Both the position numbers and the translations under genes were made by a program. Under the pieces are notes generated by a model that was not told where the DNA came from, searched no databases, and worked only from the letters and a program-made list of their open reading frames with translations. DNA of 64,000 nucleotides from an uncultured Acidobacteriota bacterium (GTDB lineage: Bacteria; Actinomycetota; Acidimicrobiia; Spongiisociales; ZC4RG35), in assembly GCA_963720925.1 (NCBI GenBank), contig CAVRHE010000011.1, positions 98,798-162,797 of the forward strand, read 5' to 3'. Below are positions 1,777 to 62,395 of this stretch, in pieces; position 1 is the first letter of the stretch; every line of letters starts with the position of its first letter.

Positions 1777-1797
1777 GTCACCGCTACCTTGAGGTCG

Positions 1798-3254
1798 ATG
1801 ACCAAGGTCGATCCCCATGTCTTCGTGATCTTTGGCGGCACAGGAGACCTTGCCCAGCGCAAGCTGATCCCGTCCCTATATCGGTTGATCAGGGACGAGG
1901 GGGCCGGCGACCATTGCGTGGTGCTCGGAGTGTCGCGCCGCGGCGGTCGGAGACGCCGCTTACCGGGAATGGGCGATTGAGGCACTCGTCGCCAGCGGGC
2001 TCGACGGCGAAGAGGTCGAGCAATGGTGCCGGCGCAATCTGCACCATCAGGCGCTCGGCGACGATGAATCCGGTTACGTCGCACTCCGGGAGCGCATCGA
2101 GACCATCGAGGCCGAGAGGGGCATTCCCGCAAATCGGGTCTTCTATATGGCTATCCCTCCGGGGGCGTTTGCTCCGACCATCCAGGGTCTCGGCAGCTCA
2201 GGGCTCAACCGGGGCCCAGGTTGGGTTCGGGTGGTCGTGGAGAAGCCATTCGGCACCGATCTCGAGTCGGCCCAGGACCCTCAACGAGCTCTTGCTCTCA
2301 CATTTCGAGGAGGCCCAGATCTACCGGATCGACCATTACCTGGGCAAGGCGACGGTTCAGAACCTGCTCACTTTCCGGTTCACCAACCCCATGTTCGAAC
2401 GCCTGTGGAACCGAGATCGGGTCAGCCGCGTCGAGATCACCGTGGCCGAAGACCTGGGCATAGGGGGTCGTGCCGGCTATTACGAGCGGGCGGGGGTGGT
2501 GCGGGACATGGTGCAGAACCATCTCACCCAGCTGCTCGCCCTGGTGGCGATGGAGCCCCCCAATGTCTTCGACGCCGACCGGATCCGCGACGAGAAGGTG
2601 AAAGCCGTGACAGCGGTGGCACCCATCGACGTGGCCGATGTCGTTTACGGGAGGTACGAGGCGGGTTGGCGGGACGGCAAGGCGGTGCCCGGATATCTCG
2701 AGGAAGAGGGCGTCGGCGCAGACTCGACCACACCGACATTTGTCGGGCTGAGGCTCTACGTCGACACCTGGCGCTGGCAAGGGATCCCGTTCCTGCTCAG
2801 GACGGGGAAGAGGCTGCCGGAGCGATCGACACACATCGCGGTGACCTTTCGGGAGCCGGCCCTCTGCGTGTTCCACGGACGTCGCGACGACTGCCTCCAC
2901 GAGCCCGATGTCCTCCTCATCATCCTCGAGCCCGACGAGGGATTCTCCTTGCGCTTCAATGTCAAGGCGCCCCATGAAGACACTGCGATCGATCCTCAGA
3001 CGCTGCATTTCCGATACTCAGATGTGTATGGGCCGCTTCCCGACGCCTATCAGACGCTGATTCTGGACATCCTCGAGGGTGACCAGACACTGTTTGTCAG
3101 GGCGGACGAAGTCGAGGCATCATGGCGTCTCTACGATCCGCTGCTCGAGCACCTGCCCAAGCTGATCGGCTACGAGGCAGGGACATGGGGCCCGCCCGAG
3201 ATGGATCAGGGCGTGGCCCTGGGCGGCGAGCATTGGATGCACCGCAAGGGGTGA
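1798..3254 (+). pseudogene. zwf: Glucose-6-phosphate 1-dehydrogenase (zwf) interrupted by two frameshifts, near 1945 and near 2285.
   Basis: Three consecutive frames read as the N-terminal NADP site (HVFVIFGGTGDLAQRKLIPSLYRL), then YREWAIEALVASG...RVVVEKPFGTDLESAQ, then LNELLLSHFEEAQIYRIDHYLGK...RYSDVYGPLPDAYQTLILD. Together they make one collinear G6PD. No opcA or pgl follows. Confidence 0.8.
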
Positions 3255-3266
3255 CGTCCAGGCACG

Positions 3267-3956: not shown

Positions 3957-4347
3957 CCCGGCAGCTCGTATCCGGCCGCATCGAGCGAGCCCGCCCCACT
4001 CCAACCCCAAACCAGTGTCACTTCCTCCTCGCCGGTGTTGTCGAATCCGTGCCAGAGGCCCCGTCTGGTGAACAGGACGTCTCCTTCGCCGGCAGGCTGG
4101 TCCTCGTCGTCGGTGTAGATCATTCCGTGGCCGGAGAGGACGATGAGGAACTCGTCGGCATTGGGGTGACGGTGCCGATCGTGCCGGGCTCCCGGCGGAG
4201 GACGGTCCAGCCGAGGAGGAGGTCGTCGGTGCCTGCCTTGGCCGCGTCGACGAGGAACTGCACCTTCATGTCGACCCAGCCCTCGTCCTCGCGCAGCCCA
4301 CCTTCGACCGGCACGTCGTGACGGTTGATCCGAAAGCGGCCGGTCAT
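3953..4347 (-). pseudogene. Cupin-domain protein with one frameshift near 4190.
   Basis: The N-terminal part (MTGRFRINRHDVPVEGGLREDEGWVDMKVQFLVDAAKAGTDDLLLGWTV) is in one frame. The C-terminal cupin core (HPNADEFLIVLSGHGMIYTDDEDQPAGEGDVLFTRRGLWHGFDN) is in another. Its ATG overlaps the upstream stop as ATGA. Confidence 0.55.
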
Positions 4348-5228
4348 TCGTGTCCTCCCAGTCGTCGATAGACATCGAAAACGGTGACAAAGTCGCGATT
4401 GCTCAAGCCGAGACCGTGGCAAGCGTTGAGCATCTCGTTCGCCGCAGCGGCGAGGGGCACGGGACTGCCCTGGCGCCGCCCCAAGTCGAGGGCGAGCAAC
4501 ATGTCCTTCTGCTGCAGGGTGACATTTGCCAAGTGGTTTGTCCGGCATGTTGCCCTCCAGGATGAATGGGCCCCTGTAGCCCATCACCGGTGATGCGACA
4601 ACGCTCTTGAGCATCGCGTCGACCGCGACGGCGCGGTCCACGCCTCCCTTCTCGGCCAACGCGACGGCCTCGCTGAAAGCCACCATCTCCACGATCAGAC
4701 AGAGGTTGATCGCCACCTTCATCTGGACGGCCATGCCGCTTGCTCCCGATGTAGGTGACATTCGGCCCGATCGCCTCCAGAACCGGGAGCACCTTCTCGA
4801 ATGCGGCGCGGTCACCGCCGACCATCACCGAAGCCTTGCCCTGCTCGAGCGAAACGGGGCTGCCCGACAGCGGTGCATCGAGCATCGTCCGTCCCGCCTC
4901 GGAATAGACAGGTGGCGATTTGTCGCGACGCATCGGGGTCGATCGTGCTCATGTCGGCGTAGATGCCATCCTGGCCGAGACCTGACAAGACGCCATCTTC
5001 CCCGATGGCGACTGACTCCACTGCCGTGGCATCGGTCACGATGGAGAGGACCACCTCGGCCGCCTCGGCCACCTGGCGGGGAGTGTCGGCCCATCCCATG
5101 CCTAGATCGCGGAGGGAATCGGCCTTCCCCGCGGTTCGGTTCCAGCCCGTGACATCGTGCCCGGCGGAGAGGAGTCGGGGAACGATGCCCTGGCCCATGT
5201 CGCCAAGGCCGATGAAGCCAACCCTCAC
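4344..5228 (-). pseudogene. 3-hydroxyisobutyrate dehydrogenase / 6-phosphogluconate-dehydrogenase-like NAD(P)-binding oxidoreductase. It is split over four frames, so about three frameshifts.
   Basis: The N-terminal Rossmann motif (MRVGFIGLGDMGQGIVPRLLSAGHDV) is followed by middle segments (YADMSTIDPDAS / AEAGRTMLDAPLSGSPVSLEQGKASVMVGGDRAAFEKVLPVLEAIGPNVTYIG / AVQMKVAINLCLIVEMVAFSEAVALAEKGG). The C-terminus reads MANVTLQQKDMLLALDLGRRQGSPVPLAAAANEM...RRLGGHE in yet another frame. Confidence 0.7.
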
Positions 5229-7034: not shown

Positions 7035-7367
7035 TTGCAGATCACCTTGACGACCACTGGCCGGAAGACGAAAAAGCCTCATAGGGTCACTCTCTACGCC
7101 TATCCCGACGACGACCGCCTGGTAGTCGTCGGTTCTTTTGGGGGACATCCCACCGATCCCGACTGGGCGGCCAATCTGCGGAAAACGCCACTGGCAAGCG
7201 TGCGCCGGGGAGGTGAAGAGATCGAGTACCGGGTGGAGGAGGTCGACGGGCCGGAGCGGGACCGTCTGTGGAAACTGGTCACCGACGCTTTCCCTCTCTA
7301 TGGGACCTATCAGGGCCGCACCAAGCGGCTGATACCGCTCTTCGTTCTCGAGCCTGTCGGCGGCTAG
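7035..7367 (+). CDS. Nitroreductase-family deazaflavin (F420)-dependent oxidoreductase, DUF385-type, 110 aa.
   Basis: Short protein (TGRKTKKPHRVTLYAYPDDDRLVVVGSFGGHPTDPDWAANLRKTPLASVRRGGEEIEYRVEEVDGPERDRLWKLVTDAFPLYGTYQ) with the split-barrel PNPOx-like fold. Confidence 0.75.
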   Translation: MQITLTTTGRKTKKPHRVTLYAYPDDDRLVVVGSFGGHPTDPDWAANLRKTPLASVRRGGEEIEYRVEEVDGPERDRLWKLVTDAFPLYGTYQGRTKRLIPLFVLEPVGG

Positions 7368-7447
7368 AGAGGACCGGATCGAACACTGTGGATGATTGAC
7401 CGGGATCGGTGCTCGGCTGTGCTTTTATTGGCGGTCAGGAGGACTCA

Positions 7448-8905
7448 ATGACCGCAAGACTCGGATTCCGGACTGTGTTCGCGCTGACCTTGATGGCAGC
7501 GCTCGTCGCGGCGTGCGGCGGCGACGAGATCGACATCGAAGAAGCCCAGGCTCAGTTCTGCACCGACGTCGAGGCATACGTCACGGCGCTCGACACCTAT
7601 GGCGGTCTGTTCGAGGACGTGGAGTTGACGGTTGGCGATGTCCAGTCCGCCGGCGACGAGCTGGAGCCCGCCCGGGAGGCCGTGCTCGACTCAGCTGCGC
7701 AGTTCCAGGAGGCGGTCGAGGCCGACCCGGATTCCGCAGTGGACATAGAGATCGTCGATCCGGAGTCGATCGAGGTCGTCGAGGAGGCGGAGGCGGCGTT
7801 TGACGATGCGGTCGCCGGGATCGATCAGCGGACCCTTGTCAGTGAGGCCGGGGTGTCGTTCACCTCCGCCGCATATGCCCTGCAGGTTGCCTGGGCCCGT
7901 CTGTTTGCCGACGCCGGTTGTCTCGATGATGAAGGCCTCGCCAATGCGACTCAATGGGTGTCCGACTATGTGACGGCCCTCCAGACCGACCTTGCCACGG
8001 CCGGCTATTACACCGGCGAGATCGATGGCATCTATGGGCCTGGAACCATCGATGCGGTGGAGCGGCTTCAGGAAGATTTCGACCTCCCCGTGACAGGATT
8101 GCTGGACCCGGCGAGTCAGGCTGCCCTGGCTGAGGTGCTCGGCCAGCAGGAGTCGGCCCAGGTCGCCGCTTTGCAGGGGATCCTCACCGCCACCGGGTAC
8201 TACGGCGGACCGATCGATGGTGTGTGGTCGATAGAGGTCGAAGACGCTTTGAAGGAGTTGCAGACGGACCTCGGTGTCCCGGCGACAGGCGTCGTCGACT
8301 CCGCCACGCTGCGCGCCTTCCAGGCTGCCCTGACCGAGGCCGGCGCCCCACCGCCACCGACAACTCCAGCGACTGAGTCGCCTGGGACCACCGCACCACC
8401 GTCACCGGCCACGACGGTTCCTGCCGTCACCACGACCGCTGCTCCGCCGACGACCCAACCCGCGCCTCCGACCACCCAGGCGCCGACCCCAACCGTGCCG
8501 GTCGTCGAGGGCAACATCCTCGAGGTGCTCGCAGATGCCGGCCAGTTCGGCGAGCTGTTGGCCGCCATCGACGCCGCTGGGCTCACCGAGACCCTGTCCG
8601 GACCAGGCCCGTTCACGCTCTTCGCTCCCACCGACGAAGCATTCTCACAACTCGCCGAGCCGCTCCCAACGGAGCCAGAGGCCCTGCAAGCCGTACTTCT
8701 CTACCACGTGGTGGAAGACAACCTGAACGGCTTCGAGCTGATGGGAATGAGCGCAGTGCCGACCGCACAAGGCTCCGAGATCGTGGTGTCGGTCGATCAG
8801 GGCGAGATCGTGCTGAATGGGTCATCGACGGTGACCATCGCCAATGTGCTCGGGACCAACGGCACGGCCCATGTGGTCAATGCGGTGCTGATTCCTCCCG
8901 GCTGA
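7448..8905 (+). CDS. Lipoprotein with two peptidoglycan-binding (PG_binding_1) domains, a Pro/Thr-rich linker and a C-terminal fasciclin (FAS1) domain. It is like MPT83/MPT70.
   Basis: A signal peptide with lipobox (ALTLMAALVAACGG) is followed by two repeats of GYYTGEIDGIYGPGTIDAVERLQ..., then a PT-rich linker, then a FAS1 core (FTLFAPTDEAFSQL...LLYHVV...GTAHVVNAVLIP). Confidence 0.8.
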   Translation: MTARLGFRTVFALTLMAALVAACGGDEIDIEEAQAQFCTDVEAYVTALDTYGGLFEDVELTVGDVQSAGDELEPAREAVLDSAAQFQEAVEADPDSAVDIEIVDPESIEVVEEAEAAFDDAVAGIDQRTLVSEAGVSFTSAAYALQVAWARLFADAGCLDDEGLANATQWVSDYVTALQTDLATAGYYTGEIDGIYGPGTIDAVERLQEDFDLPVTGLLDPASQAALAEVLGQQESAQVAALQGILTATGYYGGPIDGVWSIEVEDALKELQTDLGVPATGVVDSATLRAFQAALTEAGAPPPPTTPATESPGTTAPPSPATTVPAVTTTAAPPTTQPAPPTTQAPTPTVPVVEGNILEVLADAGQFGELLAAIDAAGLTETLSGPGPFTLFAPTDEAFSQLAEPLPTEPEALQAVLLYHVVEDNLNGFELMGMSAVPTAQGSEIVVSVDQGEIVLNGSSTVTIANVLGTNGTAHVVNAVLIPPG

Positions 8906-8913
8906 CCCCTCGT

Positions 8914-10164
8914 CTAAGGCCCACGGGGGTAAGGGATGGCCTGGATCTGCCTGATGGCCGATTTGATGTCGATCGTCGGTGGCCGTTGCGGCCGGGTCCT
9001 CGGGAGTGCCGAGGGGACCGGTCTGGGTGGTGGGTCGGCGTCGAGTTGGCTTCCGTTGGGCCGATAGAAGTCGAGGTGGCCGGGGGTCCCGTCGATACGC
9101 CATCCTCCTTCATGAACCAGGCCGTGATGGTGCCGGCAGAGCATGACCAGGTTGTCGAGGCTGGTGGGACCGCCCTCGGACCAGGGGATGACGTGGTGGA
9201 TGTCACACCAAGGCGCCGGCCGGTCGCATCCGGGGAAGATGCAGTGCAGGTCACGGGCGACGACGGCGATCCGGAGGGCGGGTGTGACCAGTCTCTTGGT
9301 CCGTCCCACGTCGAGAGGTTGGCTGTCGGGACCGAACACGACCCTGGTCAGGCTGGCGTCACAGGAGATCCTCGAAATCTCGTCGGCGGTGAGGAAGGTC
9401 CCAAGCTCTGTCTCGGAGATGCGGGGCTTACCTTCTTCGAACAGGGTTTCGGCGGAGACGTGAACGATGAGGCCGGGCCTCCCTGCGCCGGATTCGACCA
9501 TCTCCATAAGGAGGTCGGCCCGTCGGGCTGCGTTGGTTCGTGTCTCATCCGCGCCCGGGGGACCCGGGTCGAGTCGGGCTGCAAGTCTCTCCCCGGATTC
9601 GATGTCGACCCAGCCGTTGATCCGCATCATGTCGTGATCACGCCGGAGATTCAATGCTCTGGCCTCCCGGACCAATTGGCGTCCCGCGGCGAGGTCGTCA
9701 CGCGCCACCTGATCCAGCCAGTAATCGAGGCGCTTTCTCAAGTTTCGGATGAGGGGGGTGTCCAGGGCGATGCCGACCAGTTCGCTCTCAGCCTCCGTGA
9801 ACTCCTTAGAGGCCCGCCATCTCGCCTCCATCAGCACATCCACCTGAGCTCCCGAGATCAAGCCCTGCTCGAAGGCCAGCGAGACAATGGGCGCCTCGGC
9901 CAGTCCGTTCGCTCGGGCTACCAATCTCTGCGCTTCGCCGGGATGAAGGGACATTCGGTGCTTGAGAAGAGCGGTCATCGAGGTGTAGCCGTCGTGACCG
10001 AATGCCTTGATCTGATTGGCCCGGCCGACGAGCCGGGCGATTCGGGCCTCTTCGCGGTCCCGACTGCGAAGCGCCGAAGCCAGTTCATCGACCAGGTCTT
10101 CGGGTGCGGTCAGCTCGAGAAGCGGTTCGGTGGGGAAGTTCGAGGTCTCGAGCACATCGAACAT
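8914..10164 (-). CDS. HNH endonuclease with an N-terminal DUF222 domain (13E12-repeat / REP13E12 family)
   Basis: Intact 416 aa. The HNH motif is CIFPGCDRPAPWCDIHHVIPWSEGGPTSLDNLVMLCRHHHGLVHEGGW. A DUF222-like N-terminal region precedes it. A 416-aa antisense ORF on the + strand is taken to be spurious. Confidence 0.85.
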   Translation of the reverse strand: MFDVLETSNFPTEPLLELTAPEDLVDELASALRSRDREEARIARLVGRANQIKAFGHDGYTSMTALLKHRMSLHPGEAQRLVARANGLAEAPIVSLAFEQGLISGAQVDVLMEARWRASKEFTEAESELVGIALDTPLIRNLRKRLDYWLDQVARDDLAAGRQLVREARALNLRRDHDMMRINGWVDIESGERLAARLDPGPPGADETRTNAARRADLLMEMVESGAGRPGLIVHVSAETLFEEGKPRISETELGTFLTADEISRISCDASLTRVVFGPDSQPLDVGRTKRLVTPALRIAVVARDLHCIFPGCDRPAPWCDIHHVIPWSEGGPTSLDNLVMLCRHHHGLVHEGGWRIDGTPGHLDFYRPNGSQLDADPPPRPVPSALPRTRPQRPPTIDIKSAIRQIQAIPYPRGP

Positions 10165-10678: not shown

Positions 10679-12226
10679 GTGACCACCACCAGCGCGCGAA
10701 CCGTCCGACTGGGGGCAACCGATTATCCGGTCGTGCTGCCCAGTCTGCGCGATCCGCGCCTGCATCTGGCCGGCGTCATCATCACCATCCACGTGCTGGG
10801 CCAGGTGGCCCTCGATTTCCGGGTTTCGGTTCCTCAGATCCTCGCCGCCATCCTCGCCTGCGCCGTCATCGAGGTGGCGCTCACCTTTCGTAAGACCAAA
10901 CAGATCGTTTGGCCGGCCAGCGCCATGCTCACCGGCAGCGGTGTCGCCCTGATCCTTCGCATCGTCGGTCAGGAGCGCGGAGACCACTGGACGTTGAACG
11001 GTTGGTACCTGTTCGCCGGGATCGCCGCCCTCTCGTTGCTCACCAAGTACTGGATCCGATATCGAGGCACCCACGTCTTCAACCCATCGAACGTCGGGCT
11101 GGTCGCAGCTTTCCTGGTTCTGGGAAGCGAGGTCATCGAGCCACTGGACTTCTGGTGGGCGCCTCTCGACTTCTGGATGGTCGCCGCTTACGCCGTCATC
11201 CTCGTCGGTGGCGTCCTCATCACCTCCCGCCTCCGCTTGCTCACCCTGGCCGCAGTGTTCTGGCTGACCCTTGCCGTCGGTCTCGGAGTGCTCGCTGCCT
11301 CGGGACACTGCATGACCGCGGCATGGGCTCTCCAACCCGTATGCGGGACCTACTTCTGGTCGGTGATCGTGGCTTCGCCGGAGGTGCTCATCTTCCTGTT
11401 CTTCATGATCACCGACCCCAAGACCATCCCAGAGGGCCGTGCGGCGCGGATTGCGTTTGCAGTGTGCCTGGCACTGGTCTGCACCCTGCTGATGGCGCCG
11501 CAGACCACAGAGTTCGGAGCCAAAGTGGGGTTGCTCGCCGGTCTCGTCGTGATGACACCACTTCGGTTCATCCTCGACCGTGTCTTCAAATCAGACAGGA
11601 TCGAGTCATTGGCCAAGTCGTCGACGAGTCGACCGGTCCGGGCCTTCGCCCCGGGCGCCGTCGTTGGAGCTCTCCTCGTCTTGGTGCCTCTGGCCATCGT
11701 GCTCGCCGGCGCCCCGGCGCGAAGCACTGCTGTGGCCGCCCCGGTCGCGTCTCCGCCGCCCGAGATCGAGATCGACCCGGCACAGCTTCCCGACGTCACC
11801 ATCAGCGCCGAGGCGGCAGCCTTGCAAGGCGAGGTCGACCCGAACGCCGTGGCCCTCGGCCTGGCCCAGGCACTCGCCGTGGAAGCCGAGGCGATCCGTC
11901 GCGCCGACACCTCGCTGTTGCGGTCGGCCGATGACGCGGAGCGGCTCGTCGAGATGGAACGGGTCGTCGAGCAGACGGCGACCAGTGGCGTACATGCAGT
12001 TCCCACCCACACGTTCGACTCGCTTCACGTCGACGTCGCTCCCACCGACGAGACACAGGACGCAGCCAGTCTCGGGCTGGTCGCAAAGGGGACGGTGGAG
12101 ACCATCACCTACGATGCCGCCGGCGTCGAGCAGGCCCGGGGCAGCGAGCCTTTTTCCAAGACGTTCGTCCTGCGGCCTGAGGTCGGGGACAGATGGCTGA
12201 TCGTCGCGGAGGTGGAGGATGGCTGA
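10679..12226 (+). CDS. Stand-alone NqrB/RnfD-family polytopic membrane protein (putative covalently flavinylated subunit-like protein). It has an extra TM helix and an extracytoplasmic C-terminal domain of about 170 aa.
   Basis: Two hallmark RnfD/NqrB motifs are present: HVFNPSNVGLVAAF (compare GQNPFNPA) and FLFFMITDPKTIP (compare ILTDPVT, whose Thr carries FMN in NqrB/RnfD). About 8 TM helices are followed by a helix VVGALLVLVPLAIVLAG and a soluble domain. No other rnf/nqr genes are nearby. Confidence 0.55.
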   Translation: MTTTSARTVRLGATDYPVVLPSLRDPRLHLAGVIITIHVLGQVALDFRVSVPQILAAILACAVIEVALTFRKTKQIVWPASAMLTGSGVALILRIVGQERGDHWTLNGWYLFAGIAALSLLTKYWIRYRGTHVFNPSNVGLVAAFLVLGSEVIEPLDFWWAPLDFWMVAAYAVILVGGVLITSRLRLLTLAAVFWLTLAVGLGVLAASGHCMTAAWALQPVCGTYFWSVIVASPEVLIFLFFMITDPKTIPEGRAARIAFAVCLALVCTLLMAPQTTEFGAKVGLLAGLVVMTPLRFILDRVFKSDRIESLAKSSTSRPVRAFAPGAVVGALLVLVPLAIVLAGAPARSTAVAAPVASPPPEIEIDPAQLPDVTISAEAAALQGEVDPNAVALGLAQALAVEAEAIRRADTSLLRSADDAERLVEMERVVEQTATSGVHAVPTHTFDSLHVDVAPTDETQDAASLGLVAKGTVETITYDAAGVEQARGSEPFSKTFVLRPEVGDRWLIVAEVEDG

Positions 12227-13405
12227 CAACCCGGTGATCACCATGCTTGGGCGCAGGCTCCGTCTGGCGGTCATTGGCGGCGGCCCGGGAAGCTTCATTG
12301 GGGACATGCATCGATCTGCCGCGCGTCTCGATGACCGTTATGAGTTGGTCGCCGGTGCCCTCTCTTCAGACCCGGAGCGCTCTCGCGCCGCCGGGGTCGG
12401 GCTCGGTATCGTCGAAGATCGGGCATATCCGGCCGCCATCGCCCTGCTCGAGGCTGAGGCCGCCCGGGCCGACGGCGCTGACGTGATCTCGATCATGACT
12501 CCCAACGACAGTCATCACGAGTACGCAGCGGCCGCCCTCGATCTCGGCTTCGACGTCATCTGTGACAAGCCGATCACCAACACGCTGGAGGAGGCACTCG
12601 ATCTGGTCAAGCGGGTGGAGCAGACCGGTCTCGTCTTTTGCCTAACCCACAACTACACCGGGTACTCGTTGGTCCGCCAGGCGAAAGCCATGGTCGCCGA
12701 CGGCCAATTGGGGGAGATCCGGCTCGTTCAGGTCGAATACGTCCAGGGTGGAAAGGCGAGCGAGAACGATCCAGATCCGGCCGGCGGGCTTCCGTGGCGA
12801 TACGACCCGGTGCGGGGTGGCCCGTCGTTGGTGATGGGGGACATCGGGACACATGCCCACAACCTGGCTCGATTCATCACGGGTCTCGAGGTGACCGAGG
12901 TCGCCGCCGAGGTCGGTGCCATCGTTCCCGGACGACTCGTCCATGACTACGCCGGGGCCTGCTTCGATTCGAGAACGGAGCCCGGGGATCGTTCTGGGTC
13001 ACCCAAGCTGCGGCAGGAGTCGAGAACGCGCTACGGATACGGGTCTCCGGGACCCGGGGCAGCGTCGAATGGCACCAGGAGCAGCCGATGCGTCTCCTCT
13101 TCACCCCATTGGCGGGCCCAGCGGAGTGGCGAACCCCAAACGGGCCGGGAACACTTCCCCTCGCCGCCCGCTCCACACGGATCGTCGCCGGACATCCGGA
13201 GGCCTTCCTGGAGGCGTTCGCCAACATCTACTCCGATGCGGCCGAGGCGATCGCGGCACGGCGCAGCGGCACCACACCCGACCCGCTGGCCCTCTATTTC
13301 CCCAACGCCATCGACGGTGCCGTCGGTCTCCGTTTCGTCGAAGCGGTCATCACCTCGAGCCAGGAAGGCGGCGTCTGGACCGACGCCACCCCAGACTTCC
13401 TCTAG
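12219..13405 (+). pseudogene. Gfo/Idh/MocA-family NAD(P)-dependent oxidoreductase with one frameshift near 12958, a missing C in a C-run.
   Basis: The N-terminal Rossmann part (LRLAVIGGGPGSFIGDMHRSAA...CDKPITNTLEEALDLV) is in frame 0. The C-terminal part (LLRFENGARGSFWVTQAAAGVENALRIRVSGTRGSVEWHQ...HPEAFLEAFANIYSDAAEAI) is in frame 2. The two parts are collinear. Confidence 0.8.
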
Positions 13406-14780: not shown

Positions 14781-14784
14781 GACT

Positions 14785-18798: not shown

Positions 18799-18808
18799 TT
18801 TGTTGCGG
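18793..18808. promoter_or_regulatory. Perfect 6-4-6 inverted repeat CCGCAAtttgTTGCGG. It is a candidate operator for the adjacent ROK regulator.
   Basis: Seen directly in the divergent intergenic region between the ROK regulator and the xylF-like gene. Confidence 0.4.
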
Positions 18809-18887
18809 GGTCAAACATATGACGGTTATGCTCGCATCGGTCGGCGTGGGGTCGTTATGGCCGTTCGCGTCGACTCGTACGGATATT

Positions 18888-22306: not shown

Positions 22307-22468
22307 GCCCGGCCGACACCCGATCCCAACCCGTCGGGAGAAGACGCGGCCAAACCCTGTGAACCAGCTGGTGAACGTATAGCCGCATACGCTTGCAGGC
22401 CTACGGTCCCATGAGGCTATCTTCCAGGATTCCGGGGCAACATGATTGCTCGACGAGGAGGAAACGTC

Positions 22469-23592: not shown

Positions 23593-23601
23593 CACACATA
23601 G

Positions 23602-26872: not shown

Positions 26873-26905
26873 GCTTCACCCCTCAGCATGATCCACGGCG
26901 ACGGA

Positions 26906-40559: not shown

Positions 40560-40584
40560 TGGCGGCATCGTACGCCGCATATTC

Positions 40585-42055: not shown

Positions 42056-42078
42056 CGCCGGGTTTGTAGGGTGGTGCG

Positions 42079-42336
42079 ATGTTGCGGATCAAACACACTC
42101 GACGCGAGCGAGAGATCGAGGGCGCCCGAGGCGTGACCCTGACCTCTGCCAACAGTGGGTTCTTCGGGGCGACTTCATTCGGAGGCGGTGGCTTCTCCTA
42201 TCACCGTCCAGTCCTCGTCAGAAACCCGGGCACCGGGGCAATGATCCCGATCCGGGATCATGTGATGACTGTCAGGCTCGCTGCGGCTGCAGTGCTCCTG
42301 ATGGCGCTGATCTGGAGGTGGATCGATGGCAAGTGA
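42079..42336 (+). CDS. Small hypothetical protein (85 aa) with a C-terminal hydrophobic helix. It is translationally coupled to the GerW-family gene.
   Basis: The ORF ends 11 nt inside the next ORF. A Gly-rich stretch is present. No family was recognised. Confidence 0.3.
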   Translation: MLRIKHTRREREIEGARGVTLTSANSGFFGATSFGGGGFSYHRPVLVRNPGTGAMIPIRDHVMTVRLAAAAVLLMALIWRWIDGK

Positions 42337-42703: not shown

Positions 42704-42725
42704 GGTCATCGCCGCCGCTCGCAGC

Positions 42726-49137: not shown

Positions 49138-49168
49138 GGCTGCTCAGCCGGCGAAGGCGGGCATCACC

Positions 49169-50228: not shown

Positions 50229-53200
50229 ATGACGGCACCTTTCTTCGATCCTGGCCCGGATCGAGACGCCTGCGGCGTCGGCTTCATCGCGGCCCGGGAT
50301 CTCGCCCCTAGCTTCCGATTGACCCGTCTTGCCGTCGAGTGCCTGGTCAACCTCGACCACCGCGGGGCACGCGCCGCCGACGGGACCGGTGACGGCGCTG
50401 GTCTGCTGACACAGGTGCCGCATCGGCTGATCAACCGCGAGTTGGCCACGCACGGGCTCGAGGTGCCGCCGGCGCGTCTCGGAGTCGTGATGTGTTTCCT
50501 CTCACCAACCGAGGCTGCGGCATCGCGCTCGGTGGTTACCGAGGCCATCGAGGCGGAAGGGATGCAACTCCTGTTCTGGCGCTCGGTCCCCACCGATCCG
50601 TCAGTCCTCGGAGATCACGCCCGGTTCGTCCTCCCCCTCATCGAGCAGGCCATCGTCACCGGCGACGAAGAGGGCGCCGCCTTCGAGAGAAGCCTGTACT
50701 TGTCCCGGAAGCGGATCGAGAAAGCAGATGTCCCCGGGCTCTCCGTCCCGTCGGCCTCCGGCCGAACCGTGGTCTACAAGGGTTTGTTCACCGCATCCAA
50801 GATCTCTGATTTCTACTGGGACCTGCGCGACCCTGATTTCGAGACTGCGTTCGCCATCTTCCACCAGCGGTATTCGACCAACACCTTCCCGTCGTGGGAC
50901 AACGCTCAACCGTTCCGCACCCTCGCCCACAACGGTGAGATCAACACCATCCAGTCCAACCGATCGTGGATGGTGGCCAGGGAGAAGGCGGCGACGCCGG
51001 GGGTATGGGGGGATCGCCTGCCTGACGTCTTCCCTTTCCTCCAGCCCGGCATCTCCGACTCGGGGAGCCTCGACAACGTGTTCGAGTTGCTCATGCAAAG
51101 CGGCCGGTCGCTGCCACACGTCAAGGAGATGCTCATGCCCGCGGCCTGGGAGAACGTCCCTGACCTGGAGCCGGACCTCGGCGCCTTCTACGCCTATCAC
51201 GCTTTTCTCACCGAGCCTTGGGACGGTCCGGCAGCCATAGCGGCCACCGACGGATCGTCGCTGCTGGCCGGCATGGACCGCAACGGTCTTCGCCCTGCCC
51301 GGTGGGCGGTCACGCCCGAGGTGCTCCTGGTCGCGTCAGAGGCGGGGGTCTGCCCCGAGGAGGAGTCCAAGGCCACTGCCACCGGCCAACTCGGGCCGGG
51401 TGAATTGATCCTGTTCGATGGTGAGACGGGCCATGTGCTGCACTCCGAGGAGGTCAAGCAAGCGCTGGCCACGGCCCGGCCGTACGGGGATTGGGTGAAC
51501 ACCGAAACTCTCCGCATCCAGGCTTCGTTCGACGGTCTTGCCGACGAGCGCTTCGACGCCGCCGCGCTGAGTCGGGTGTTCGGGTACACCGCCGAGGAGC
51601 GCAGGCTCGTCATCGCCGACATGGCGAAGGGTGACAACCCGCTCGGATCGATGGGCGACGACACCGGGCTCGCCGTTCTGGCCAACAAGCCACGCCGACT
51701 CACTCAGTTCTTCCACGAGCAGTTTGCCCAAGTGACCAATCCACCAATGGACCCGATCCGGGAGAAGCTGGTCATGTCCCTCCGCATCCAGCTCGGACGG
51801 CGCGGCCCTCTGCTCGAGGACCGGCCGCAACAGGCCCACCTCATCGAGCTGTCCAGCCCGATTCTCTCCGATGCAGAGCTGGAATCGATCGTCCGTTCCG
51901 GGGACGCGAGGTTCTTCTCACACTGGATCGCCACCACCTGGGCCGTGTCGGACGGACCTGAAGGGATGGAGGGCCGACTCGACGAGATCTGTGAGGAAGC
52001 CACCCAGGCGGTCAAGCTGGGGGCGACGATCATCGTGCTCTCCGATCGGGAGACAGAGGCCACCAGGGCGCCGATACCGATGCTCCTCGCCTTGGGGGCT
52101 GTCCATCACCGGCTGATTGACGAGGGGGTGCGGGGATCGGTTTCTCTGGTTGTGGTATCGGGGGAGCCACGCGACCCGCACGACCTGGCCTGCCTGGTCG
52201 GTTTCGGGGCGTCGGCCGTGAACCCCTACCTGGCCATCGAGCATGCTCGCGATCTCGCTGCGTCGGGCGCCATCGACGTCGACCCGGTGGCGGCGCAGGA
52301 GAACTACCGGCAGGCCATGGAGGGTGGCCTGCTCAAGATCATGTCCAAGATGGGTATCTGCACGCTTTCCGCCTACCGCGGCTCTGAGCTCTTCGAGGTC
52401 ATCGGGCTCTCCGAGCAAGTCTGCCGGAAAGCGTTCCGCAACGCCCCGCGCCGTCTTCGGGGTGTCGGGACGAAGGAGCTTGCCCGCCAGGCGCTGCAAC
52501 GTCACGAGGCTTACACGACCGGGGTGCCCGATCCCGGTGGGTTCTACAAGCATCGCCGTGGCTCCGACACCCACGTCACCAGCCCGATGGTCGTGCTTGC
52601 CGTGCAGAAGGCGGTTCGCTCGGGCGACCCGGAAGATTGGGACAAATACATCGAGATGATCTCGGATCGTGATCCGGCGCTGGTGCGAGATCTCCTCACC
52701 TTCGTGCAGCGGGAACCGGTCCCCCTCGAGGAGGTGGAGCCGGTCGAGGCCATCATGCGCCGATTCACTACTGCGGCCATGTCTCACGGCGCGCTCTCGG
52801 CGGAGGCCCACGTGGCCCTCGCCGAGGCAATGAACCTGATCGGTGGGCACTCCAACTCCGGCGAGGGAGGGGAGGACCCGATCCGGTTCGGCACCCCGAT
52901 GAACTCGGCGATAAAGCAGGTCGCATCGGGCCGTTTCGGGGTCACCCCGGCATATCTCCACTCCGCCGACGAGCTACAGATCAAAATGGCGCAGGGATCG
53001 AAGCCGGGCGAAGGCGGCCAGCTGCCCGGACACAAGGTGTCAGCCGAGATTGCCCGCCTCCGGTACACCGAGCCCGGGGTCACCTTGATCTCGCCGCCCC
53101 CGCATCACGACATCTACTCCATCGAAGACCTCGCCGAGCTCATTTACGACCTCAAGGCGTTCAAGCCGACAGTCCTCGTCTCGGTGAAGCTGGTGAGCGA

Positions 53201-54599
53201 GCCTGGCGTCGGCACGATCGCGGTCGGCGTGGCGAAGGCCGACGCGGATGTGATCACCATCTCTGGATCGGAAGGGGGCACCGGCGCATCACCACTCGTG
53301 TCGATAAAGCACGCCGGCTCACCCTGGGAGCTCGGCCTGGCCGAAGCGCACCAGGTCCTCACCACCAACGGCCTCCGCTCGAGGGTGCTGCTGGAGACAG
53401 ACGGTGGGCTTCGCACTGGGCGCGACATCATCGTCGCTGCCCTGCTCGGAGCGGAGCGATTCGGTTTCGGGACACTTCCACTGCTCGCCATGGGCTGCAA
53501 GATGGTTCGCCAGTGCCACCTCAACACCTGCCCGGTTGGGATCGCCACCCAGCAGGAGGACCTGAGGGCGAAGTTCACCGGATCGGCCGATCAGGTCGTC
53601 CTCCTCTTTCGTCGCCTGGCCGAAGAGGCACGGAGGCACATGGCCGCACTCGGAGCCCGCTCGATCGCCGACCTGGTGGGACGCGCCGACCTGCTGCGCC
53701 CGATCGATCCCCAGCACCCGCTCTCCGCGGACCTCTCGGCCATGCTGCTCGCATCGAAAGGCGGAAAGGTCCACGAGGGATATCGCAAGCTCCCGTTGTC
53801 GAGCCTCTCGGTTCGCCTCGTCGCCGACAGTCAGGAGGCGATCGCCACTCGCCAACCCGTCGACCTCTCCTATCCGATCCGCAACGTCGACCGGGCGATA
53901 GGCGCCCGGCTCTCGGGTGAGATCACCGCCCGGTACGGGAGTGACGCCCTGCCCGAGAGCACGATCGTCGTCAAGCTCGCCGGCACAGCCGGACAGAGCT
54001 TTGGCGCCTGGCTGTGCAATGGGGTGGAATTCCATCTCGAGGGAACGTCCAACGACTACCTCGGCAAGGGGATGGGTGGCGGTCTGGTCTCGGTTACGCC
54101 CCGACGCCCGACCGGGTCCGCCCCTCACGCGGCCGGCAACGCGGTCCTCTACGGAGCGACCGGGGGCCGTGCCTTCCTGGCCGGTCGTGTCGGTCAGCGC
54201 TTCGCAGTTCGCAACTCCGGCGCGACCGCGGTCATCGAGGGCTGCTCAGACCATGGCTGTGAGTACATGACGGGCGGCAAGGTGCTGGTTATCGGTGACG
54301 TCGGTCGCAACTTCGCGGCCGGGATGACCGGAGGAGTGGCCTATGTGTGGGACCCGGATCTCAGTCTCAAGGCGCTGCTGGCCGACACCGCGCCCTCGGC
54401 GCGCCGTCCGTCGGACGCCGACCTGGCCGACATCAGATCGCTGATCGAGACTCACCTCCGTTACACCACCAGCCCTGTGGCCGAGCAGATCCTCGACGAC
54501 TGGAATCGGCAGGAAGGGGCTTTCTGGGTGATCTCTGCATCGGCCCCACGGCGCAAGCCAGTGGAGGTCGAGGTGACAGAGGTCCCTGCCGCCGGTTGA
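50229..54599 (+). CDS. gltB: Glutamate synthase large subunit, intact 1456 aa.
   Basis: Ntn amidotransferase N-terminus (CGVGFIA), an FMN/central domain, a 3Fe-4S Cys motif and a C-terminal GXGXG domain. No frameshift over 4.4 kb. No gltD follows. Confidence 0.95.
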   Translation: MTAPFFDPGPDRDACGVGFIAARDLAPSFRLTRLAVECLVNLDHRGARAADGTGDGAGLLTQVPHRLINRELATHGLEVPPARLGVVMCFLSPTEAAASRSVVTEAIEAEGMQLLFWRSVPTDPSVLGDHARFVLPLIEQAIVTGDEEGAAFERSLYLSRKRIEKADVPGLSVPSASGRTVVYKGLFTASKISDFYWDLRDPDFETAFAIFHQRYSTNTFPSWDNAQPFRTLAHNGEINTIQSNRSWMVAREKAATPGVWGDRLPDVFPFLQPGISDSGSLDNVFELLMQSGRSLPHVKEMLMPAAWENVPDLEPDLGAFYAYHAFLTEPWDGPAAIAATDGSSLLAGMDRNGLRPARWAVTPEVLLVASEAGVCPEEESKATATGQLGPGELILFDGETGHVLHSEEVKQALATARPYGDWVNTETLRIQASFDGLADERFDAAALSRVFGYTAEERRLVIADMAKGDNPLGSMGDDTGLAVLANKPRRLTQFFHEQFAQVTNPPMDPIREKLVMSLRIQLGRRGPLLEDRPQQAHLIELSSPILSDAELESIVRSGDARFFSHWIATTWAVSDGPEGMEGRLDEICEEATQAVKLGATIIVLSDRETEATRAPIPMLLALGAVHHRLIDEGVRGSVSLVVVSGEPRDPHDLACLVGFGASAVNPYLAIEHARDLAASGAIDVDPVAAQENYRQAMEGGLLKIMSKMGICTLSAYRGSELFEVIGLSEQVCRKAFRNAPRRLRGVGTKELARQALQRHEAYTTGVPDPGGFYKHRRGSDTHVTSPMVVLAVQKAVRSGDPEDWDKYIEMISDRDPALVRDLLTFVQREPVPLEEVEPVEAIMRRFTTAAMSHGALSAEAHVALAEAMNLIGGHSNSGEGGEDPIRFGTPMNSAIKQVASGRFGVTPAYLHSADELQIKMAQGSKPGEGGQLPGHKVSAEIARLRYTEPGVTLISPPPHHDIYSIEDLAELIYDLKAFKPTVLVSVKLVSEPGVGTIAVGVAKADADVITISGSEGGTGASPLVSIKHAGSPWELGLAEAHQVLTTNGLRSRVLLETDGGLRTGRDIIVAALLGAERFGFGTLPLLAMGCKMVRQCHLNTCPVGIATQQEDLRAKFTGSADQVVLLFRRLAEEARRHMAALGARSIADLVGRADLLRPIDPQHPLSADLSAMLLASKGGKVHEGYRKLPLSSLSVRLVADSQEAIATRQPVDLSYPIRNVDRAIGARLSGEITARYGSDALPESTIVVKLAGTAGQSFGAWLCNGVEFHLEGTSNDYLGKGMGGGLVSVTPRRPTGSAPHAAGNAVLYGATGGRAFLAGRVGQRFAVRNSGATAVIEGCSDHGCEYMTGGKVLVIGDVGRNFAAGMTGGVAYVWDPDLSLKALLADTAPSARRPSDADLADIRSLIETHLRYTTSPVAEQILDDWNRQEGAFWVISASAPRRKPVEVEVTEVPAAG

Positions 54600-57673: not shown

Positions 57674-57981
57674 GGCGTCCGCCTCGATTCTCTCTGCTCT
57701 CTCATTTGACCTTCGCTTCTCGGATGGCCGCCCCGGGAGTGGGGAATCAAAAAGATCCGCTCCCTGCCGGTGCGGATCTCGTGTTTCGTGTGGTTGTGGC
57801 GCTTGCTTACACGGACGAGTCGCACGGCCTCTCGGTCGTGGTCGTCATACCGGTCGTGAGCCAAGCACTCATGTATAAGGCAAGGTATCCGGGATCGTGG
57901 ATCAAGTCAATGCCGCGCCCCTCCGCCACAGGATCTTGCACAAATCCGGCGGAATGCAATAGCCTTGTGATTGACGAAGCG

Positions 57982-58063
57982 CTCATCTTGAGCGGTTGAG
58001 GGATCAGGCCCGATGAAACCGCGGCAACCGGCGCAAGCACGGTGCCAATGCCTGGATCGATGA
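57982..58063 (+). ncRNA. SAM-I (S-box) riboswitch in the 5' leader of metH
   Basis: CUCAUCUUGAGCGGUUGAGGGAUCAGGCCCGAUGAAACCGCGGCAACCGGCGCAAGCACGGUGCCAAUGCCUGGAUCGAUGAG. It matches the S-box consensus almost base for base (P1 CUCAUC/GAUGAG, GAGGGA, GGCCCGAUGAAACC, GGCAACC, GGUGCCAAUNCCUG). A GC-rich hairpin (GCCGGAGCC-auu-GGCUCCCGGC, 58066-58087) follows as the expression platform. Confidence 0.85.
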
Positions 58064-58128
58064 GTTGCCGGAGCCATTGGCTCCCGGCGCTCTTCAAGCG
58101 TTTCGAGAAGAAACAGAGGAGTAGACCG

Positions 58129-61100
58129 GTGAGCGAGGCTCGGCCGAGCGACTACATACATTTCGTGCAATCCGGTCTCGTCATCTTCGACGGGGCTACC
58201 GGCACCAACCTTCAGACCGTCGGGCTCACCGCCGACGACTTCGGCGGCCCGTCCCTCGAGGGATGCAACGAGTTGTTGAACCTGCGTCGTCCCGACGTGA
58301 TCAGAGACCTGCATCGCTCTTTCCTGGAAGTCGGGGTGGACGTGGTGGAGACCAACACCTTCGGAGCCTTCGCCGTCCCGCTGGGGGAGTACGGGCTCGA
58401 GGACCAGTCCTACGAGATCGCGGCGTCAGGGGCGACATTGGCAAGAGAGGTCGTGGACGAGTTCGTCAAGGCGGATGGACGGCCCCGGTATGTTGCCGGG
58501 TCGATCGGTCCCGGAACAAAATTCGCCACCCTCGGCCAGATCTCATATCAAGACCTGGCCGCGGCCTACGAAGTGGAGTCTTCCGGGCTCATCGACGGAG
58601 GCGCCGACCTCCTGATCATCGAGACCCAGTTCGACTTGCTCGGGGCCAAAGCCGCCATCGACGGGGCCCGCAGGGCGATGAAAGCCGCCGGTGTGGAGAT
58701 CCCTCTCCAGGTCCAGGTCACCATCGAGCTCACCGGGCGGATGCTGCCCGGCACCGAGATCGGCGCCGCCCTGACCACCCTCGAAGCGCTGCGACCCGAT
58801 GTGATCGGCCTCAACTGCGCCACCGGGCCCGCGGAGATGTACGAGCCGCTGCGCCACCTCGCCCGCCACTCGACGGTGCCGGTGGCGGCGATACCCAACG
58901 CGGGACTTCCTCATGTGGAGGACGGGCAGATGGCCTATGACCTGTCACCTGACGACCTGGCCCATCACCTCGGACAGTTCGTCACCGAGATGGGGATCGG
59001 CGTGATCGGGGGCTGCTGCGGCACGAGCCCGGCGCATCTGGCCGCAGTTGTGGAGAGGACCCGCCCCCTCTCGCTCATAGACGCGCAAGCCAGAGACGAT
59101 CCCTTCGGCTGCGTCGATCTACAGCCAGGTTCCATTTGACCAGGACACGTCGTTCTTGATCATCGGGGAACGGGCCAACGCCAACGGGTCACGCGCCTTC
59201 AAGGAGTCCCTGCTCGCCGACGACCTCGATGGATGCGTGTCGATCGGCCAGGATCAGGTGAAGGAGGGGGCTCATCTCGTCGACCTCTGTGTCGATTATG
59301 TCGGGCGGGACGGAGTGGCCGACATGCTCAAGCTGGCCGCTGCTTTCGCCACCGATGTTGCCGCCCCCGTCGTGCTCGACTCAACCGAGCCCGAGGTCAT
59401 GGAGGCCGGTCTCGAACGGCTCGGCGGCCGCAGTTTGCTCAACAGCGCCAACCTCGAGGACGGCGAAGAGCCGGGCTCGCGTCTCGACCGGGTTTTCGGG
59501 CTGGCTCACAAGCACGGGGCCGGAGTCATCTGTTTGCTCATCGACGAGGAGGGGCAGGCCCGCACCCTGGAATGGAAGCTGCGGATCGCACATCGCATCC
59601 ACGACCTCGCCGTCGAACGCTATGGCTTGCGTTCCGAGGACTTGATATTCGATGCCCTCACCTTCCCTCTCACCACGGGTGGCGACGACCTGCGCAAGGA
59701 CGCGATGATCACCCTCGACGCCATCCGGCAGATCAAGACCGAGCTGCCCGGGGTCAGGACCGTGCTCGGCGTGTCCAACGTCTCCTTCGGTCTGAACCCG
59801 GCGGCACGGCGCATCCTGAATTCTGTGTTCCTCCACGAAGCGGTCGAGGCCGGTCTCGACGCGGCAATTGTCCACGCCGGGAAGATCGAGCCGCTCAACC
59901 GGATCGACCCTGAGCAGCGCCAGGTCTGCCTCGATCTCATCTACGACAGGCGTGCCGAGGGTTACGACCCATTGGAAAAGCTCCTCGAGCTGTTCGCCGG
60001 GGTGGAGACGGTGGAGCGGTCGGAGAGCGATTACGAGGGCATGGCGGTGGGAGAGCGGCTCGCCAAGCGCATCATCGACGGTGACCAGAAGAACGTCATC
60101 GCAGACCTCGACGTCGCCTTGGGGGAGGGCTCCGAGCCCCTCGACATCATCAACAACTACCTCCTCGATGGGATGAGGACGGTCGGCGACCTCTTCGCCA
60201 GTGGTGAGATGCAACTCCCCTTCGTCCTCAAGTCGGCAGAGACCATGAAGAAGGCCGTCGCCTATCTCGAGCCGATGATGGAGAAGGCCGAAGGCTCGAC
60301 CCGGGGCCGGATCGTGCTCGCCACGGTGTCAGGCGACGTCCACGACATCGGCAAGAACCTGGTCGACATCATCCTGACCAACAACGGGTACGAGGTGCAC
60401 AATCTCGGCATCAAGATCGGCATCTCGGAGATGATCGCCAAGTTCGAGGAGACCTCAGCTGACGCGATCGGGATGAGCGGGCTGTTGGTGAAGAGCACCC
60501 TGATCATGCGCGACAACCTCGAGGAGTTGGAGCGACGGGGTCTGGGCAAGGTCCCCGTGCTCCTTGGTGGGGCCGCCTTGACCAGGAACTACGTCGAGGC
60601 CGATCTCCGATCTCGATACCAGGGCCCGCTCTACTACGGCAAGAACGCATTCGCCGGGCTCGAGGCAATGGGGAAGATCGTGGCCGGCGAGCCCGCTCCC
60701 GAGCCCATCGCGGCCAGGCAATATCACGAGCGGGAGACCGCCGGGGGTGTCATCCCGGCCCGGTCGCCCGACGTCAAGCGGGACAACCAGATCTTCGTGC
60801 CGCCCTTCACCGGGTCCCGGGTGATCCGGGGGGTCTCGATCGACGAGATCGTCCCCTATCTCAATCTGACCGCCCTCTTCCGCAACCAGTGGCAATACCG
60901 GCCGGAGAAGGGGGAACGGGACCTCGATTTCAAGGAACGGCTCACCCCGCTGCTTCGGGAGCAGATCGCTCTGGCCCGTCATGACGACCTGCTCAACCCC
61001 AAGGTGGTCTACGGATACTTCCCCGCGAACGGCGACGGCGACGACCTCGTGATCTGGGACGACGTCAGCGCTCAAAGGGAGCTGACCAGGTTCAGCTTTC

Positions 61101-61616
61101 CCCGCCAGCGGGAGGACCCGTACCTGTGCATCGCCGACTTCTTCCGACCGGTCGGCGAAGAGGTCGACTACGCCGCCTTTCACATCGTCACGATGGGCGA
61201 CAAGGTCTCCGACCGCACCAAGGATCTGTTCGAGCAGGACCGTTACACCGACTACCTGCTCCTTCATGGTCTCGGTGTGGAGATGGCCGAGGCCCTCGCC
61301 GAGCACTGGCATCATCGGATCCGGGAGGAGTGGGGGTTCGTCGATGAGGACGGACCGTCCCTCCTCGGGCTGTTCCGGCAGCAGTATCGGGGTGGACGCT
61401 TCTCATGGGGATACCCGGCGTGTCCCGACCTCGAGGACAACGAGAAGGTGGCCTATCTACTCGGGCGCCGACCGGATCGGGATCACGGTGGGCGAGGAGA
61501 CCTTCTATCAGTACCAGCCGGAACAGACGACCTCGGCCATCATCTGCCATCACCCTCAGGCGAAATATTTCGTTGCCCGCAAGCCCAGGGAGGACCGAGA
61601 TGCTGACAAAGGCTGA
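58129..61616 (+). pseudogene. metH: Cobalamin-dependent methionine synthase with two frameshifts, near 59120 and near 61465.
   Basis: GTG start after AGAGGAG. The Hcy-binding domain is in frame 1 (…GGCCGTSPAHL…). After the shift it reads QVPFDQDTSFLIIGERANANGS...with a pterin-binding domain, B12-binding domain (GDVHDIGKNLV) and AdoMet-activation domain in frame 2. The last 50 aa (ADRIGITVGEETFYQYQPEQTTSAIICHHPQAKYF...) are in frame 0. Confidence 0.85.
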
Positions 61617-62395
61617 GGGCTGGTTGCGGATTGCCGAGATCAACCCTCCCGAGCTCCCCAACCTCCAGCATCGGAGCCTGTCGCCCGGCTTGGAGCCATG
61701 TGCTGGTGACCGACAATGTCTTCGGGCGGATCCGTGTCTCGCCGTATGCGTTCTCGGCCCGCATCACCCATGACACGCCCGACGTGCACCCGACGGTGGT
61801 GGTGTCGACCAGGGACCGGAACATCCTGGCCATCGAATCCGAGGTGAGAGGTGCCCTCGGCAACGGAGTCGATTCGTTTCTCGTCGTCATCGGCGACACG
61901 GTGCCCCACGTCGACCATCTGGCGCACCACTACGAGATCGTCGAGCACCTCAGGGAGCTCCAGGAGAATTTGCCTGATTTCGAGGTGGGCATGCCCTCCC
62001 GATTCCGCGAGTGGCAATTCCGGCGCAGGATCGAGCTGGGGGCCCAGTTCTTCGTCACCGGGCCGATCCTCGACCCCGAGGTGATGGAGCGGCACCTCGG
62101 TCTGCTCAACCTGAAGCCGGAAGACCCTCCCGTCTTCGTGATGGTCATACCTCCCTTCAGCTTGTCCTGGGTGGAGCAGATGGAGGCCATCGGGTCGGTC
62201 CCTTCTACCGACGGCATGAAACAGCGACTTGCCGACCTCAGCCCCGAGGTGGGTCGCAAGCTCGGATGGGAGATGATCTCCGAGGCGGAGAAGCGGGCGA
62301 GGGACGCCGGGGCGGCCGGCGTCATCCTGATGGGGCTGAAATACGAATCGGTGGTTGGTGAGGCGGCGGAGAACTGGCTGAACCGGCGCGATTGA
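61600..62395 (+). pseudogene. metF: Methylenetetrahydrofolate reductase (MetF-like) with one frameshift near 61670. Its ATG overlaps the metH 3' end.
   Basis: MLTKAEGWLRIAEINPP... in one frame, then SHVLVTDNVFGRIRVSPYAFSARITHDTPDVHPTVVVSTRDRNILAIESEV...ELGAQFFVTGPILD in the ORF frame. Confidence 0.65.

Follow-up and report, generated by a model that had tools for sequence, protein, structure and literature searches.

Single-base insertions and deletions (indels) that fragment conserved open reading frames (ORFs) are well described for long-read metagenome assemblies (Nanopore or PacBio, assessed with tests of the IDEEL type). Bins at low coverage, below ~40x, carry such frameshifting indels, which are absent from short-read relatives and whose load varies (PMC9262707, PMC12007338). 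The published residual errors are bound to homopolymers and are mostly deletions in GC-rich genomes (PMC12007338, PMC8574707). Apparent frameshifts also have another described source: in a diploid eukaryote, a mosaic consensus of two alleles produces them, and they are gone upon allele- or strain-resolved assembly (PMC8445201). Real frameshifts are found in the reductive pseudogenes of the Candidatus Burkholderia leaf-nodule symbionts, where many genes are frameshifted, sometimes with several shifts per gene. Here, we analyse a 64-kb stretch of contig CAVRHE010000011.1 (positions 98,798 to 162,797, hereafter the window), which is part of a metagenome contig from an uncultured Acidimicrobiia bacterium and in which 28 one-base frameshifts interrupt 17 genes. 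To judge from the sequence comparisons below, these frameshifts are very probably errors in the deposited consensus and not mutations of the organism.

The window resembles the long-read errors in that single-base indels fragment conserved ORFs, are missing from the relatives and differ in load between assemblies. It is unlike them in that 25 of the 28 events are insertions and only three are deletions, and in that about half lie clearly outside homopolymers. The collapsed-haplotype consensus (PMC8445201) is alike in mechanism, i.e., two alleles are merged and frameshifts result. However, the alleles there belong to a diploid eukaryote, while here they would belong to bacterial strains, and the tandem-allele signature is deduced from sister assemblies. 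The several shifts per gene recall the leaf-nodule symbionts, but real reductive pseudogenes differ from the window in showing a deletion excess, varied indel sizes, stop codons and relaxed constraint (PMC6054270).

Number and spectrum of the frameshifts

Frameshifts were called by protein-to-DNA alignment permitting one-base frame changes, against the intact orthologues of relatives, with nucleotide alignment as a cross-check. Whole-block nucleotide alignment to the sister species was noisy in intergenic DNA and was used solely to confirm sites within coding sequence. In frame plots based on codon scores and on the G+C content of third codon positions, the frame changes are visible and the strands are not separable, and the orthologue-guided alignment took over. 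It gives 0.47 frameshifts per kb over 60.1 kb of assessable coding sequence. The Pfam matches show the same breaks, as one family is spread over neighbouring frames, for example G6PD_N/G6PD_C in three frames and NAD_binding_2 plus NAD_binding_11 over four ORFs.

The original prediction had counted about 35 frame changes in about 20 genes. The frameshifts exist, but they are fewer, and some of the changes that may have been counted downstream of gltB, at 54.6-56.6 kb, are normal boundaries among three small genes. The prediction had also listed clpB (33536-36148, +), gltB (50229-54599, +; 95.8% identical to L171, see below), hom, an aminotransferase and an aldo/keto reductase as free of frameshifts. 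The orthologue alignment agrees, and about 35 other genes are intact as well. The tail (C-terminal) of sugar-binding protein 1, at window 19455-20129, has a 4-nt indel near 20066 compared with L176 and codon gaps compared with L175; it can be error or natural variation and was excluded from the count.

All 28 events are one base long. Over the 21.4 kb that the affected genes comprise, in-frame stops, indels of 2, 4 or 5 bases, large deletions and insertion elements are all absent. Replication slippage would copy a neighbouring base nearly always, and a random base is expected to match a neighbour in 47% of cases. In at least 11 of the 22 insertions that are evaluable, i.e., that have conserved flanks, the surplus base copies neither neighbour. 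Several of the surplus bases even interrupt runs of four G or four C: GG[C]GG at 25009, GGG[A]G at 27918 and C[G]CCC at 61683. Thus, the homopolymer run lengths by which long-read error is classically recognised are not what the window insertions follow. Curated bacterial pseudogenes have an insertion to deletion ratio of ~0.76 and a broad size range, and one-base deletions make up only a third of their deletions (PMC6054270). Given that ratio, the probability of at least 25 insertions among 28 events is 4.5e-7.

Comparison with relatives and same-species assemblies

The window has 65% G+C and genes densely packed on both strands. For ClpB and GltB the nearest relatives are uncultured Acidimicrobiia from sediment and soil metagenomes; JGI sample 3300009157 matches at 94-96% amino acid identity and several metagenome-assembled genomes (MAGs) at 90%. 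A contig scan with ClpB gave, among the matches listed, none closer than 80%. At least nine intact predicted proteins of the window are already present in a public protein collection (sources NCBI and ENA), where they lie on one contig of 309,858 bp. The syntenic relatives compared are L091, L081 and L171 (JGI Ga0105092), L086 to L090 (NCBI and ENA MAGs) and L172 (a 3.18-Mb ENA contig with a name of the form ctg..._50x_c). Two ENA assemblies from the same species, whose contigs are the nearest public relatives of the window, were reached via cluster members of window proteins: L176 (ERZ25039536 contig_119965, 256 kb) and L177 (ERZ25039504 contig_97198, 96 kb). They are 96.3% and 96.6% identical to the window, respectively, and same-species coverage is limited to 18.4-47.5 kb of it. 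L175 (contig_51761 of ERZ25039536, 743 kb) is a related contig, ~83% identical to the window. Their Flye-style contig names and their lengths suggest that L175, L176 and L177 are long-read assemblies.

According to the original prediction, intact orthologues with identical flanks in sister strains would argue for recent error over decay. Among the relatives, the orthologues are full length in every JGI contig, in every NCBI MAG, in every contig with a k141_ name (MEGAHIT-style), and in the 3.18-Mb contig. The region 26375-42095 of the window was compared three ways, against L176 and L177 and with L081 as outgroup. Each one-base indel in this alignment is private to one assembly, and no lesion is common to the window and any relative. 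All six window frameshifts in the region are an extra base in the window only, which L176, L177 and L081 do not have. As the insertion at 21380 is missing from L176 too, L176 is without all seven window insertions that it covers.

The sister assemblies carry other private indels of their own. In L176, about ten private insertions hit the GT4 glycosyltransferase, the TAP hydrolase and permease 1. One of these, a surplus base at window position 21233 and thus 147 nt from the window's 21380, yields the same false ORF of 704 amino acids in which a permease and an ATPase appear fused (20192-22306, +, in the window; 16750-18864, -, in L176). In L175 and L086 the permease and the ATPase are two distinct genes with a 4-nt overlap. 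The false fusion has entered public gene calls, as the called gene of L176. L177 has ~32 private deletions and 10 insertions, and its disrupted genes are clpB, GreA, AlkZ and LiaF. Its gaps number ~5 per kb and are mostly deletions. Its clpB (7180-9800) is cut into ORFs of 59, 410, 179 and 234 amino acids. Because clpB is broken in a near-identical genome, a functional reading in which housekeeping genes are protected falls. The xylB gene of L175 (12910-13940) has five frameshifts, at codons other than those of the window.

The type of error also differs between assemblies, being mostly deletions in L177 and mostly insertions in L175, L176 and the window. Both public ENA assemblies, ERZ25039504 and ERZ25039536, bear heavy frameshift loads.

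Allele doublets and strain-divergent stretches

At several insertions, the window holds in tandem the alleles that its relatives hold one by one. At 26590 the window has TGC where L177 has TG and L176 has GC, both without the surplus base. The same is seen at 38448 (CG in the window, C in L177, G in L176), at 39858 (TG, with T in L177 and G in L176) and at 27916, where TGGGA stands against TGGG in L081 and GGGA in L176. Three further doublets are CG at 21380 (C in L176, G in L086), GA at 24701 (G in L081, A in L175) and GCCCGG at 40233 (GCCCG in L086; CCCGG in L176, L177 and L081). An automatic test found both alleles of an L176/L177 single-nucleotide polymorphism in tandem at three of eight private window insertions, and a fourth was found by eye; by chance this is expected at 2.7% per site, P ~1e-3. 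The pattern recurs in two of the nine insertions of L176 (P = 0.011). The placement of the doubled sites was too ambiguous for their codon position to be used.

Over the stretch shared with L177, the position of the frameshifts follows the divergence between the strains. The window is 99-99.8% identical to L177 from 29.4 to 38.4 kb, and the two diverge by 2.4-3.3% over 38.4-42 kb and by 15-16% over 26.4-28.4 kb. The six frameshifts of this shared region are all located within the 6.7 kb where the divergence is at least 2.4%, and none lies in the 9 kb that are 99-99.8% identical and hold the intact clpB (0.427^6 = 0.006).

The densest cluster, with six events in 3 kb, falls in the second sugar-transporter island (22326-25371). 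This operon, coding for a binding protein, a permease and an ATPase of an ABC transporter, occurs in the window, L081 and L175 and is missing from L176 and L086. From its distribution among these assemblies, it is evidently polymorphic for presence and absence within the species.

Within 26375-42095, the window and L176 differ by 22% in the GT4 glycosyltransferase (36.4-37.4 kb) and by 1-3% elsewhere. An alignment error was considered for the L176 glycosyltransferase (dS 0.65) and was rejected, since the 22% divergence is that of a truly divergent allele. The same-species genomes of the window, L176 and L177 are thus mosaic, which suggests that alleles were replaced by recombination.

Clustering of the frameshifts

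Clustering was measured against a uniform model of 28 events over the assessable coding sequence. Twelve spacings are shorter than 400 nt while 4.6 are expected (P ~5e-5), and the four largest event-free stretches total 33.8 kb against an expected 23.8 kb (P = 0.003). Counts in 2-kb bins have a variance-to-mean ratio of 1.5 (P = 0.03). Taken alone, the largest gap does not stand out (P = 0.17), and the number of genes affected, 17 against 20.7 expected, is a weak signal (P = 0.05). Clustering is thus real at a scale of a few hundred bases to ~3 kb. The strong clustering claimed in the original prediction stands at short range, but is weak by the single largest gap and by the number of genes hit. 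Its estimate of roughly e^-7 for an error-free gltB and clpB was too strong, because it assumed about one event per kb and not the measured rate. The chance that both genes (7.0 kb) are clean is 0.03, and the two genes were chosen post hoc.

GC content around the frameshift sites shows no association with them, whatever the size of the interval. GC-dependent failure of polishing was dropped as a candidate for this reason. A tRNA scan of the window found none, hence there was no RNA gene to serve as an independent error check.

Selection on the interrupted genes

After correction of the frames, the ratio of nonsynonymous to synonymous divergence (dN/dS) against the sister species is 0.05-0.17 in the broken genes, the same as in the intact genes. 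Against the same-species L176, it is 0-0.26 in broken and 0.04-0.28 in intact genes. This pairwise dN/dS, which had been proposed earlier as a means to detect relaxed selection, shows no relaxation, and it has too little power to exclude very recent decay. The clearest example is ATPase 2 of the sugar ABC transporters (24609-25377, +). It has four surplus bases in 770 nt, at 24701, ~24748, 25009 and ~25325, and despite these frameshifts it has 94.5% amino acid identity to its L081 orthologue and a corrected dN/dS of 0.047. Similarly, the 73 codons around the frameshift of permease 1 are 100% identical to L086 at a dS of 0.47.

A branch-specific count leans modestly the other way. Amino acid changes specific to the window are relatively commoner in the broken genes, 100/89 against 75/120, with an odds ratio of 1.8 and P = 0.006. 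They are spread over the length of the genes, with no build-up around the shifts, and the broken genes evolve faster in both lineages. The excess is the sole observation leaning towards relaxed constraint, and it could equally be expected from substitution errors or from faster-evolving genes.

Origin of the frameshifts

We suggest that at least two strains of one species occurred together and that their reads could have been merged into a single consensus. At substitutions between the strains, the aligner or polisher would have scored the allele pair as one insertion and one deletion, and both bases would have been retained. The retained second allele would then be one added base that shifts the frame. 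Where the strains are near-identical, as around clpB, the consensus would be clean, while strain-variable or strain-restricted stretches, i.e., the second sugar-transporter island, xylAB and the TAP-hydrolase region, would collect clusters of errors. The retention of both alleles in a collapsed strain mix would account for the insertion bias, the non-homopolymer context, the clustering and the enrichment in strain-variable (accessory) genes. We hold this specific mechanism to be probable with modest confidence only. It implies that strains were mixed in this sample, that the platform was presumably a long-read one and that the insertions other than the doublets would share the same origin.

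Several observations weigh against this reading. The doublet pattern is seen in none of the eight private insertions of L177, and in the window it covers only about a third to half of the testable insertions, the rest having no known second allele. Within 150 nt of the sites, polymorphism shows no significant increase (P = 0.25). The profile departs from that of classical residual long-read error, which is homopolymer-associated and rich in deletions at high GC. The excess of amino acid changes described above belongs here as well, and as the same-species assemblies are ~4% divergent, private real mutations are possible in principle. The support comes from the comparison of assembled sequences.

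It is also possible, if rather unlikely, that the frameshifts are generic long-read noise, i.e., random single-base errors that stayed in the consensus in patches where coverage was low or polishing failed, with no mixing of strains. The errors are indeed patchy and clustered, the sister assemblies differ strongly in error load and type (above all L177), and about half of the insertions have no known alternative allele. Bins below 40x are also known to need polishing (PMC9262707). However, such noise leaves unexplained both the allele doublets, with their P of ~1e-3, and the confinement of the errors within 26375-42095 to strain-divergent stretches, and the strong insertion bias outside homopolymers is unlike the published profiles of residual error. 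Generic noise and strain collapse are compatible with each other, and both are artefacts. The original prediction had offered assembly error dependent on coverage as one of its two explanations. Error itself is borne out by the private lesions and their spectrum, but strain heterogeneity is a likelier driver than plain coverage.

The other explanation offered was genuine reductive decay of accessory and sugar catabolism genes, including metH. As a very recent pseudogenisation in this strain that removes sugar catabolism, zwf and the metH/metF route, it would fit the enrichment of accessory and sugar functions among the affected genes, the modest excess of lineage-specific amino acid changes and the divergence of the comparators, which leaves room for private mutations. 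We nevertheless give it only a slim chance. The spectrum is of one base, dominated by insertions and not of the slippage type, no lesion is common to any relative, dN/dS is unchanged, and up to four lesions sit in one gene on which purifying selection is otherwise strong. If substitutions are about ten times as frequent as indels and 3% of random substitutions create a stop, about eight stops would be expected, and none is present. The sister assemblies break housekeeping genes including clpB. In addition, an S-adenosylmethionine (SAM, S-box) riboswitch is intact directly upstream of metH-metF (57980-58066, +; 67.7 bits against a gathering score of 44.4), which suggests that the operon is regulated by SAM and functional. 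Real and fixed surplus bases would mean a free-living member of the Acidimicrobiia at the onset of gene loss (xylose use, zwf, metH/metF) through an insertion-only process, for example non-templated addition during end joining, and this is highly improbable. The mutagenic scars themselves, i.e., single bases added without template by repair of the Ku/LigD type at repeated double-strand breaks, would agree with single-base and often non-templated insertions in an actinobacterial lineage, by analogy with mycobacterial non-homologous end joining. This is hardly credible, as four repaired breaks within 770 nt of one gene are implausible, the allele doublets are not predicted, and the same class of lesion occurs at other sites in each of the Flye-named sisters and never in the JGI, NCBI MAG or k141_-named assemblies. 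Finally, programmed ribosomal frameshifting or transcriptional slippage could restore the proteins, and it has in its favour that the frames are offset by one base and nothing further. The 28 sites are without a common motif and the orthologues of all relatives are unshifted at the same codons, so the chance of this is close to nil.

The frameshifts are almost certainly a data-quality warning and not biology. Were they real, the window would show an unusual incipient genome decay in an environmental actinobacterium, including the loss of B12-dependent methionine synthesis. As artefacts, they cause ~30% of the window genes to be mis-called as fragments or false fusions, the permease-ATPase ORF being an example. 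The tandem-allele signature, together with the confinement of errors to strain-variable stretches, could serve as a read-free check for collapsed-strain errors in long-read MAGs.

The interrupted genes

The first interrupted gene is zwf (glucose-6-phosphate dehydrogenase; 1798-3227, +), where surplus bases at ~1941 and ~2274 distribute the coding sequence over three frames and split the Pfam match to G6PD_N/G6PD_C. The alignment to its L091 orthologue, at 85.5% identity and free of stops, sets the two one-base insertions at 1942 and 2273. On the opposite strand, a cupin gene (3959-4347, -) has lost one base at ~4199-4201, where GGG became GG. The adjoining HIBADH-like NAD-binding dehydrogenase (4347-5228, -) has three surplus bases, at ~4533, 4743-4747 and 4910-4913; it is 88.7% identical to L091 with a dN/dS of 0.09, and its NAD_binding_2 and NAD_binding_11 matches are those divided among four ORFs.

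The Gfo/Idh/MocA oxidoreductase gene (12219-13393, +) lacks one base at 12958, where a missing C had been proposed. In the creatinase/M24-like peptidase gene (13405-14822, -), the surplus bases at 13704 and 13739 are 35 nt apart, and the T at 13739 stands between two G that are conserved in five relatives.

In the sugar-transporter region, permease 1 (20192-21509, +) has a surplus base at 21379/21380. Its final 43 codons thereby fall into the frame of the gene that follows, which creates the false fusion described above. Sugar-binding protein 2 (22469-23592, +) has surplus bases at ~22805 and ~22890, as placed by alignment to P0241, P0244 and P0245 (92-95% identity). A close homologue of this protein, P0253, on an ENA contig of 207,639 bp, needs its own one-base frame change to align, which suggests a frameshift error in another public long contig. 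The xylB gene (xylulokinase; 25388-26872, -) combines a surplus base at ~26590 with a missing base at ~25427 near the C-terminus, and three references concur. In xylA (xylose isomerase; 26909-28253, -), the surplus base falls within 27914-27918, where the window reads TGGGA and the relatives read TGGG or GGGA. The extra A that had been proposed near 27905 corresponds to this surplus base.

Further along, a hypothetical protein of 352 amino acids (37552-38611, +) has a surplus base at ~38447-38449, and the TAP-like alpha/beta hydrolase (38614-40568, -) has two, at ~39858 and ~40232. A second hypothetical protein, of 481 amino acids (40609-42052, +), has a surplus base at ~41194-41199. It is probably the gene that was earlier described as a SpeE fusion, a label without Pfam support, as the protein has no Pfam match. 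The SLH-domain protein (42729-44209, -) has a surplus base at ~43053, from the alignment to P0251 (91.9%) and P0252. In the luciferase-like oxidoreductase gene (49147-50128, -), three references concur on a surplus base at 49174/49175 that alters the last 8 residues; the window has CC where relatives have G, T or A.

The last two interrupted genes form the riboswitch-preceded pair. B12-dependent methionine synthase, metH (58144-61613, +), has surplus bases at ~59082 and ~61466 and, when corrected, is 89.6% identical to L172 with a dN/dS of 0.072. In metF (61600-62392, +), a surplus G at 61683 splits a run of C.

Neighbouring genes

The gene of the SLH-domain protein (42709-44211, -) lies between the YtfJ-like and Usp genes in the window and in L177, and is not at that position in L172, L086 or L089. 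The C-terminal 300 residues of the protein match no Pfam family, and there are many homologues of ~495 amino acids (P0251-P0360).

A DUF222/HNH endonuclease gene (window 8917-10164, -) has a counterpart with 72.9% identity at the equivalent place in the sister species L091, and near metF in L173 there is a further call, of a DUF222 fragment. The DUF222/HNH gene has the look of a mobile-type gene with a stable location here.

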